Positions 20,696-20,894 of a stretch of DNA of 64,000 bases are shown here, in pieces. Origin of the DNA: an uncultured delta proteobacterium (GTDB taxonomy: Bacteria > Desulfobacterota > Binatia > Binatales > Binataceae); contig CAVXXK010000001.1 in assembly GCA_963765675.1 (NCBI GenBank), forward strand, positions 1,120,001 to 1,184,000. Direction: 5' to 3'. The stretch's first letter is position 1, and each line of letters opens with the position of its first letter. The notes under the pieces were generated by a model. The model ran no database searches. It was not told where the DNA came from and saw nothing but the letters and a program-made list of their open reading frames with translations. Both the position numbers and the translations under genes were made by a program.

Positions 20696-20734
20696 GCGAA
20701 TGCAACCCCCGCCCTTACCCACCCCTGATTGGAA
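20696..20734 (-). promoter_or_regulatory. Self protospacer with TTC PAM overlapping putative csb1-operon promoter
   Basis: Minus strand TTC-CAATCAGGGGTGGGTA matches crlRNA spacer at 14 of first 16 nt; TTGCAT -35-like hexamer at 20705-20700. Confidence 0.7.
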
Positions 20735-20739
20735 AGAGA

Positions 20740-20768
20740 TTGATTCTGGCGTATGGGCCTGCTAGCTT
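20740..20768 (+). promoter_or_regulatory. Sigma70-type promoter of the CRISPR-like RNA
   Basis: TTGATT-17 bp-TAGCTT with TG extension. Confidence 0.6.
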
Positions 20769-20774
20769 TAAGTT

Positions 20775-20894
20775 GTGTTCCGACGTCGGCCTTATTGAAG
20801 GCAATCCGGCGTGGGTAGGCATCGCCCAAACTGTTGCATTTTCCGCCCTCCCGGCGGCCTCTTTGGGGACGGATTACCCGTCCCCTCCTTTTTT
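20775..20894 (+). ncRNA. Single-spacer CRISPR-like RNA (crlRNA; CreR/CreA-like)
   Basis: Degenerate repeat CCGACGTCGG-CCTTATTGAAGG, 36-nt spacer 20802-20837, second degenerate repeat ATTTT-CCGCC-CTCCC-GGCGG-CCTCTTTG, then terminator. Confidence 0.78.
20865..20894 (+). terminator. Intrinsic terminator of crlRNA
   Basis: GGGGACGG-ATTAC-CCGTCCCC followed by TCCTTTTTT. Confidence 0.8.

Follow-up and report, generated by a model that had tools for sequence, protein, structure and literature searches.

What is a single spacer between two degenerate repeats doing among the genes of a type I-G CRISPR-Cas system? The question is raised by a locus of an uncultured delta proteobacterium of the Binataceae. 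It lies in a stretch of 64,000 nucleotides (nt) (assembly GCA_963765675.1, contig CAVXXK010000001.1, positions 1,120,001 to 1,184,000 of the forward strand), which we call the window and whose numbering we use throughout. Between csb1 and cas2 the window contains a short unit that looks like a CRISPR array with one spacer. An initial annotation had proposed that this unit makes a CRISPR RNA (crRNA)-like RNA (crlRNA) whose partial pairing directs the I-G effector to the promoter region of the effector's own operon. We found that covariation of spacer and target, the protospacer adjacent motif (PAM) and the geometry of predicted promoters support this proposal in 26 of 81 loci. Based on these sequence comparisons, the unit is probably a regulatory crlRNA of the CreR type that represses the I-G effector operon.

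A single-spacer unit and its target

The unit consists, in order, of a degenerate repeat that ends in an 8-nt handle (psiR1), a 36-nt spacer (psiS), a second degenerate repeat with a hairpin (psiR2) and an intrinsic terminator (Table 1). We read the sequence again and found the promoter candidate, handle, spacer, second repeat and terminator where the annotation had placed them. Its description of the first repeat as shrunken did not hold: psiR1 is a full-length 36-nt degenerate copy, with its last 15 nt well kept. The repeat of the CRISPR array in this locus is ATTTCCGCGCTCATCGGAGCGCGGCCCCATTGAAGT, and its 36 nt comprise a hairpin (CCGCGCTC-ATCG-GAGCGCGG), CCCC and the handle ATTGAAGT. By a hand count on the alignment, psiR1 matches this repeat at 21 of 36 positions without gaps and at 12 of the last 15. 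In psiR2 the part corresponding to the handle has decayed to TTTGGGG. The Rfam family CRISPR-DR16 gave a weak match to 20775-20801 (19.9 bits, E 0.98, below the gathering threshold), and the weak match of the array is to the same family. The terminator of the unit was the top terminator-like site in our scan, with 8 pairs, 7 of them G-C.

The spacer matches a site between the unit and csb1. Read on the minus strand, 20731-20716 is CAATCAGGGGTGGGTA, which matches spacer positions 1-16 at 14 of 16; over 18 positions there are 15 matches. The annotation had reported this match together with its TTC flank and a mismatch at position 6, and all of this stands; the second mismatch is at position 9. 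No other TTN-flanked site in the 4.5-Mb genome matches the spacer at 13 or more of the 14 paired positions. One further site reaches 13/14, but its flank is GTT. A blastn search with 20640-20900 against plasmids and against phages gave no match. A search for sequencing runs that contain this stretch listed 19 of DNA type and none of RNA, which does not bear on whether the unit is expressed. The annotation had also taken TTN to be the PAM of type I-G. This agrees with published work on an I-G system (PMC9638904) and with the targets of the related units described below.

Spacers and targets covary in related loci

We searched species-representative genomes for Csb1 and obtained 213 relatives, from which 80 loci were kept; our analyses cover 81 csb1-led loci, 8 of which have less than 600 nt of searchable upstream sequence. 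In all 80 kept loci csb1 is followed by csb2, and cas3g comes next wherever the fetched locus reaches that far. The unit is conserved in full in two relatives, L004 (83% nucleotide identity) and L003 (~70%). In L003 there is a 3-nt insertion at the 5' end of the spacer, and the register of the target starts 3 nt earlier, beside a new TTA PAM, with 15 of 18 positions matching. In a third locus, L006, spacer and target are both entirely unlike those of the window, yet they match each other at 11 of 11 positions from position 1, beside TTT.

We compared positions preceded by the handle sequence to arbitrary positions in the 81 regions upstream from csb1. Of 31 positions preceded by ATTGAAG, 16 reached 14/18 against a TTN-flanked site in the same region, compared to 476 of 171,111 arbitrary positions (0.28%). 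A scan that did not depend on the handle turned up the variant handles ATTGCAG and ATTAAAG. When the PAM was not required, a handle-preceded spacer matched a nearby site at 12 or more of 14 positions in 26 of the 81 loci; spacer positions 6, 9, 12, 18 and beyond were not used in selecting these loci. The targets carry TTN in 25 of the 26 (TTA in 11, TTC in 6, TTT in 5 and TTG in 3), and the remaining one has CTT. The other 55 loci, scanned over their whole length, served as a negative control; they yielded 82 matches at the same threshold, only one of them with TTN. This single match, in L046, is mismatched at positions 6 and 9, as is typical of the units, and pairs in the way expected of a further member. 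In L046, a DDE transposase of an insertion sequence (L046:2452-3807, +) lies between the crlRNA target and csb1, placing the promoter predicted to be regulated ~1.6 kb from the effector genes.

Spacers fit their own targets (mean 13.6 of 14) and not those of other loci (mean 4.9 of 14). They fall into 14 clusters, and nearly every difference between spacers within a cluster is compensated in the target (9 of 9 for L018 compared to L021). The check that the annotation had suggested, a search of homologous I-G loci for covariation of spacer and protospacer, was thus positive in 26 of 81 loci. The repeats of the 26 units have decayed in complementary ways: the handle persists in psiR1, whose hairpin decays, and the hairpin persists in psiR2, whose handle part decays. 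A hairpin of the psiR2 type folded in 24 of the 26 units by our own reading of the folds. Hence both parts that a loaded crRNA needs, a handle and a hairpin, have been retained.

The 26 pairs define which positions of the spacer match. Positions 1-5 match in all 26 pairs, position 6 in 6, positions 7 and 8 in 26 and 25, position 9 in 13, positions 10 and 11 in 26 each, position 12 in 11, positions 13-17 in 26, 23, 24, 23 and 24, position 18 in 5, and positions 19-36 in 2 to 10. Pairing ends sharply at position 17, and positions 6 and 18 match at about the level expected by chance. This abrupt end is consistent with binding that leaves the R-loop incomplete. The annotation had invoked the rule that every sixth base is unpaired in type I complexes, a rule cited for regulatory guides of type I-C (bioRxiv 10.1101/2024.12.27.630466), and the free positions 6, 12 and 18 of the 26 pairs fit it. 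Position 9 is different. It is mismatched in half of the loci (13/26) and in most members of 7 of the 14 clusters, and its neighbors 7, 8, 10 and 11 match in 25 or 26. The type I six-nucleotide rule leaves this relaxed position unexplained.

The targets appear to lie within or next to the promoters that are predicted for the effector cas genes. With the loci aligned on the PAM, 19 of 26 have the first base of their best csb1-ward -35-like hexamer at protospacer position 14-32; the box usually lies just beyond the paired stretch, on the PAM-distal side. A promoter match of at least 9/12 is present downstream of the target in 13 of 26 loci, for example TTGACA-18-TATATT in L052. The candidates in the window are poorer, matching the consensus at 6/12 for the effector operon and 7/12 for the crlRNA (our own counts). 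TTGCAT of the former aligns with TTGACA of L003, and the position of the latter is conserved in L004 and L003. The units are arranged in four ways. Sixteen of the 26 are divergent, as in the window; in 4 the crlRNA lies in the leader, behind the promoter that is targeted; in 3 it is upstream on the same strand; and in 3 it is the protospacer that lies on the other strand. By our own reading of the sequence, the protospacer of L009, which belongs to the last group, spans both the -35 and the -10 candidate of a csb1-ward promoter.

What the unit is likely to regulate

We propose that the unit works as follows. It would be transcribed on the plus strand from about 20775 to the terminator at 20894. 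Csb2 would bind the hairpin of psiR2 and trim the RNA, and the mature RNA would consist of the handle ATTGAAGG, the 36-nt guide and a 3' hairpin. We infer this processing from the anatomy of the array repeat and from the published cleavage rule: Csb2 cuts 4 nt 3' of the base of the hairpin to leave an 8-nt handle, its Cas6 domain binds the hairpin, and the authors predict that it remains at the crRNA's 3' end (PMC9638904). CCCC followed by ATTGAAGT in the array repeat fits this rule. The RNA would be loaded into the Csb1/Csb2 effector, which would recognize the TTC PAM at 20734-20732 and pair the guide with only the ~17 PAM-proximal nt (20731-20715), leaving positions 6, 12 and 18 free and often position 9 as well. 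The R-loop would be incomplete and, by analogy to CreA/CreR, Cas3 would not be licensed to cut. The bound complex would cover the -35 just PAM-distal of the paired stretch and repress the promoter of a small open reading frame (ORF), csb1, csb2, cas3g and the Cas3-extension gene. In this way the effector would limit its own expression by negative feedback, and the promoter would be released when the effector is scarce, filled with many crRNAs or blocked by an anti-CRISPR.

The small ORF lies between the targeted promoter and csb1, so the first gene to be regulated would not be csb1. In L001 and L003 it encodes 68-70 amino acids and stops ~20 nt before csb1. In the window its frame changes near the C-terminus to give 118 amino acids and an overlap of 125 nt with csb1, which is either a real frameshift or an assembly error. 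Our scan found no terminator-like site on the minus strand between the small ORF and csb1. Together with the short distance from its stop to csb1 in L001 and L003, this indicates that the same promoter most likely drives the cas genes too. The small ORF is conserved as a protein in the clade of the window (L003 and L006 are 35% identical over 51 amino acids, E 7e-10), and blastn found no nucleotide similarity between the window and L006 in this stretch. It belongs to no Pfam or NCBIfam family, a word-indexed protein search returned the query alone, and the Atlas had no usable feature match. An AlphaFold model from a 5-row alignment was uninformative (predicted local distance difference test score, pLDDT, 49.7), and the Atlas model was poor too. 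A hidden Markov model of the ORF found 2 of 301 genomes of the phylum, namely the window's own and one weak match (E 0.001, inside a frame of 212 amino acids).

The interval between target and csb1 looks like a slot for cargo. L016 has a DUF3892 gene there (L016:3598-3864, +), and L014, L020, L021 and L041 have unrelated ORFs of 90-173 amino acids that belong to no family. Another candidate in the window was an upstream ORF, short and with Arg codons, whose ATG is at 20659. We considered it as an RNA toxin like CreT and rejected it, as the ATG is absent in L001, L003 and L004.

Several points weigh against a crlRNA that represses the effector operon. The gene immediately behind the target is the small ORF and not a cas gene. 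Both promoters in the window are weak, and neither appeared in our consensus scan, which needs 9/12. The hairpin of psiR1 is nearly lost in the clade of the window (a 3-bp stem), making it uncertain that Csb2 processes the 5' end. Within the I-G effector, Cas3 is reportedly a stable subunit (PMC9638904), and it follows that the avoidance of self-cleavage is an assumption of the model. The seed in L004 is mismatched at positions 1 and 3 and reaches 11/14 by our own count, in a record of ~1x coverage. No such pair was found in 54 of the 81 loci (L046 and L004 counted as additional members). Lastly, a literature search limited to the main text of papers found no study of an I-G unit.

These points have to be set beside what else the unit could be. 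It might be a decayed end of an array without function, with a spacer that resembles nearby DNA by chance. The degenerate repeats and the two weak promoters would be expected of such a relic. We rejected a chance match, and with it an array relic, on the covariation of spacer and target, which holds in 14 clusters. A relic would also have to account for TTN at 25 of 26 targets, the edge at position 17, the retention of the handle in psiR1 and the hairpin in psiR2, and a target that is unique in the genome; we regard it as extremely unlikely. It is also possible that the effector mainly controls the divergent side, either the crlRNA's own promoter or cas2-cas4/cas1, and not the effector operon. 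The layout is divergent in 16 of 26 loci, and in the window the PAM is 5 bp from the -35 candidate of the crlRNA (20734 and 20740). However, a terminator separates the crlRNA from cas2, and the -35-like box that is PAM-distal reads toward csb1. In addition, in the other 10 of the 26 loci the crlRNA runs in the same direction as csb1 or the protospacer is on the opposite strand, and the target is still on a csb1-ward promoter. It is very unlikely that the divergent side is what the effector mainly controls, but it may repress the crlRNA promoter as well, as the annotation had suggested.

The small ORF suggests a different possibility, that the unit is a CreTA-like module guarding cargo. The crlRNA would then mainly silence the small ORF, a toxin or cargo that would be freed on loss or inhibition of the effector, and the cas genes would be repressed incidentally, through co-transcription. 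The ORF is the first behind the targeted promoter, is conserved as a protein, has no known family and is restricted to its clade (2 of 301 genomes, one of them weak), all of which would suit a toxin or cargo gene. Other loci have different inserts at this place, such as the DUF3892 gene of L016, and cargo genes are found between mini-arrays and cas10d in type I-D (Shmakov et al., PMC10120712). In contrast, the lack of a terminator between the small ORF and csb1 most likely puts the cas genes on the same promoter, and the family searches and the AlphaFold model revealed no toxin signature. The ORF in the window is frame-shifted at its C-terminus. Furthermore, the target is only 92-202 nt from csb1 in the crlRNA loci L010, L018, L043, L074, L009 and L071, and in L071 and L074 there is no listed upstream ORF of at least 40 amino acids that ends before csb1. 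We think it quite unlikely that guarding cargo is the main function.

Repression of the effector operon by the crlRNA could be part of a more elaborate scheme. The pairing pattern (17 nt, with 6, 12, 18 and also 9 free) could be a code specific to type I-G, acting as a brake on the R-loop that lets a Cas3-carrying effector sit on its own promoter and not cut it. In the clade of the window, that promoter could in addition guard a toxin or cargo, combining CreR and CreTA beside an integrative conjugative element. We consider this whole scheme unlikely.

The type I-G locus and its comparison to known systems

The CRISPR-Cas locus of the window is of type I-G. Matches to TIGR02165, TIGR02570, TIGR02621 and NF049935 all exceed the cut-offs, and the repeat has the length (36 nt), the hairpin, the 4 nt to the cleavage site and the 8-nt 5' handle of I-G repeats. 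The TTN PAM is seen at 25 of the 26 regulatory targets. The annotation had read the effector operon as csb1-csb2-cas3-cas8g. The first three genes are as described; the last is a member of the Cas3-extension family and not Csx17/Cas8g. A search for Csx17/Cas8g (TIGR04113) gave no match in the genome of the window, but this says little because control genomes were silent too. The large subunits of I-G variants differ widely in size (PMC9638904).

Table 1. Positions of the crlRNA unit, its target, the candidate promoters and the surrounding genes in the window.
Feature	Position	Strand	Basis or remark
psiR1, first degenerate repeat, CCGACGTCGGCCTTATTGAAGG	20766-20801	+	alignment to array repeat; 3' part CGGCC..ATTGAAG kept
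Predicted 5' handle, ATTGAAGG, last 8 nt of psiR1	20794-20801	+	common to L003, L004 and L006
psiS, 36-nt spacer-like guide; positions 1-17 are the pairing window	20802-20837	+	sequence; target match
psiR2, second degenerate repeat, ATTTTCCGCC-CTCCC-GGCGGCC	20838-20864	+	hairpin CCGCC/GGCGG (20843-20857) kept
Intrinsic terminator	20865-20894	+	stem-loop 20865-20885, T6 20889-20894; terminator scan and fold
Protospacer-like target	20696-20731	-	pairing only at 20731-20715; the complex would cover the remaining 20714-20696, where the -35 candidate overlaps
PAM, 5'-TTC on the protospacer strand	20732-20734	-	sequence; TTN in relatives
Candidate crlRNA promoter, TTGATT (20740-20745)-17-TAGCTT (20763-20768)	20740-20768	+	read from sequence
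Candidate effector-operon promoter, TTGCAT (20705-20700)-17-TAAATC (20682-20677)	20677-20705	-	read from sequence
Small ORF, no assigned family	20288-20641	-	first gene downstream of the targeted promoter; overlaps csb1
csb1/cas7g	19120-20409	-	Pfam PF09617 and NCBIfam TIGR02570
csb2 (Cas5-Cas6 fusion, crRNA-processing enzyme)	17653-19113	-	TIGR02165, 3.2e-80
cas3g	14720-17656	-	TIGR02621, 5.5e-231
Type I-G Cas3-extension family gene, 278 amino acids, after cas3g	13760-14596	-	NF049934, 2.1e-38
cas2 (adaptation)	21020-21349	+	Pfam/NCBIfam
cas4g/cas1g (adaptation)	21364-23193	+	Pfam/NCBIfam; NF049935, cas4-cas1 fusion
CRISPR array	23374-26300 (end approximate)	+	41 repeat copies, 39 exact; same strand as crlRNA

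The region 3486-13228 encodes an integrase, an IrrE-like peptidase, a TraI-like helicase, a TrwC relaxase, a TrwB coupling protein and a TrbC pilin, indicating that the CRISPR-Cas locus adjoins an integrative conjugative element. The region is inside a contig of 2.44 Mb and is therefore chromosomal and not plasmid-borne. On the other side, ~2.5 kb past the approximate end of the array, 28808-30760 (+) encodes a protein of 650 amino acids with zinc ribbons, an adenylate/guanylate cyclase domain and an AAA ATPase domain. The interval between the crlRNA terminator and cas2 contains two copies of a ~24-nt motif, …A[AG]CAAAT[AC]GTGTA[CG]AGAAA… (20916-20939 and 20982-21005, +). The pair is also present in L004, and one copy aligns in L003. 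A promoter-like sequence, TTAACA-16-AATAGT (20918-20945), overlaps the first copy, and the motif may serve the adaptation genes as an operator or promoter. In L006, the first 34 residues of Cas2 (79% identity) are duplicated between the crlRNA unit and the full cas2 (L006:3237-3338).

Type I-G has been called the least understood type I subtype, and the question has been raised of how it recognizes its PAM and unwinds DNA with Cas3 aboard (PMC9638904). The 26 covarying pairs of guide and target are a natural mutational series. They indicate that the I-G effector reads positions 1-5, 7-8, 10-11 and 13-17, and they confirm TTN in vivo. They are also test cases for how an effector that carries Cas3 could bind DNA without cutting it. 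The units predict that expression of I-G systems limits itself and rises when the effector is blocked, which would be relevant to genome editing with endogenous I-G systems.

Autorepression of this kind is known from CreR (Cas-regulating RNA), which has been demonstrated experimentally for types I-B, I-E and V-A (Liu et al., bioRxiv 10.1101/2023.03.10.532045). Like CreR as described there, the unit of the window is a degenerate mini-CRISPR in the cas locus, beside the cas operon, with complementarity that is partial and PAM-proximal only, next to the PAM of its subtype. Its target appears to adjoin the predicted promoter of the effector genes, and an autorepression loop is predicted. Unlike the I-B, I-E and V-A examples, it belongs to a type I-G system, in which Csb2 is a Cas5-Cas6 fusion and Cas3 is reportedly integral to the effector; moreover, csb1 is separated from the target by a small ORF, and position 9 often stays unpaired. 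The annotation knew of no characterized I-G example. This fits the literature that we searched, with the qualification that Liu et al. mention creA-like elements found by hand for I-D, I-C, I-E, I-F and I-U (bioRxiv 10.1101/2023.03.10.532045), I-U being the old name of I-G.

The unit can also be compared to a toxin-antitoxin arrangement. In CreTA (CRISPR-repressed toxin-antitoxin), a crRNA-like RNA with degenerate repeats guides Cascade by partial pairing to repress a neighboring promoter. The window unit has these same three features, the RNA with degenerate repeats, the partial pairing and the neighboring promoter. It differs in that our searches identified no toxin and in that the promoter predicted to be repressed seems to be that of the effector operon itself. 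CreR, for its part, stands alone with no toxin gene beside it; the small ORF of the window is a candidate toxin by its position only.

According to Shmakov et al. (PMC10120712), mini-arrays directed at cas promoters are common in types I-B, I-E and I-F1. As in those mini-arrays, the spacer lies between two repeat-like sequences, of which the distal one is degenerate, and is complementary in part to a cas promoter; cargo genes are sometimes found between the mini-array and the effector genes. That survey lists mini-arrays in 4% of 235 I-G loci without discussion. We found a covarying pair in 26 of 81 csb1-led loci (27 with L046); the two sets differ and these numbers are not directly comparable. 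It is possible that the 4% figure, which comes from an automatic survey, strongly underestimates this branch of I-G.

Two other kinds of natural guide are similar in part. The crlRNAs of type I-C have 16 bp of pairing with mismatches at 6 and 12 and an adjacent -35 (bioRxiv 10.1101/2024.12.27.630466). They share with the window unit the TTC PAM, the -35 beside the target and the mismatches at 6, 12 and in the PAM-distal part, but they target promoters of other immune systems, whereas the window unit targets its own operon. The tracr-L of type II-A is likewise a natural guide that, by partial complementarity, redirects its effector to repress its own cas promoter (bioRxiv 10.1101/2020.05.21.102756), but it serves a class 2 single-protein system and derives from a tracrRNA and not from a mini-array. 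The type of circuit is thus already known. What is new is a comparative record for I-G that is richer than that in print, and a position 9 that the known rule does not explain.

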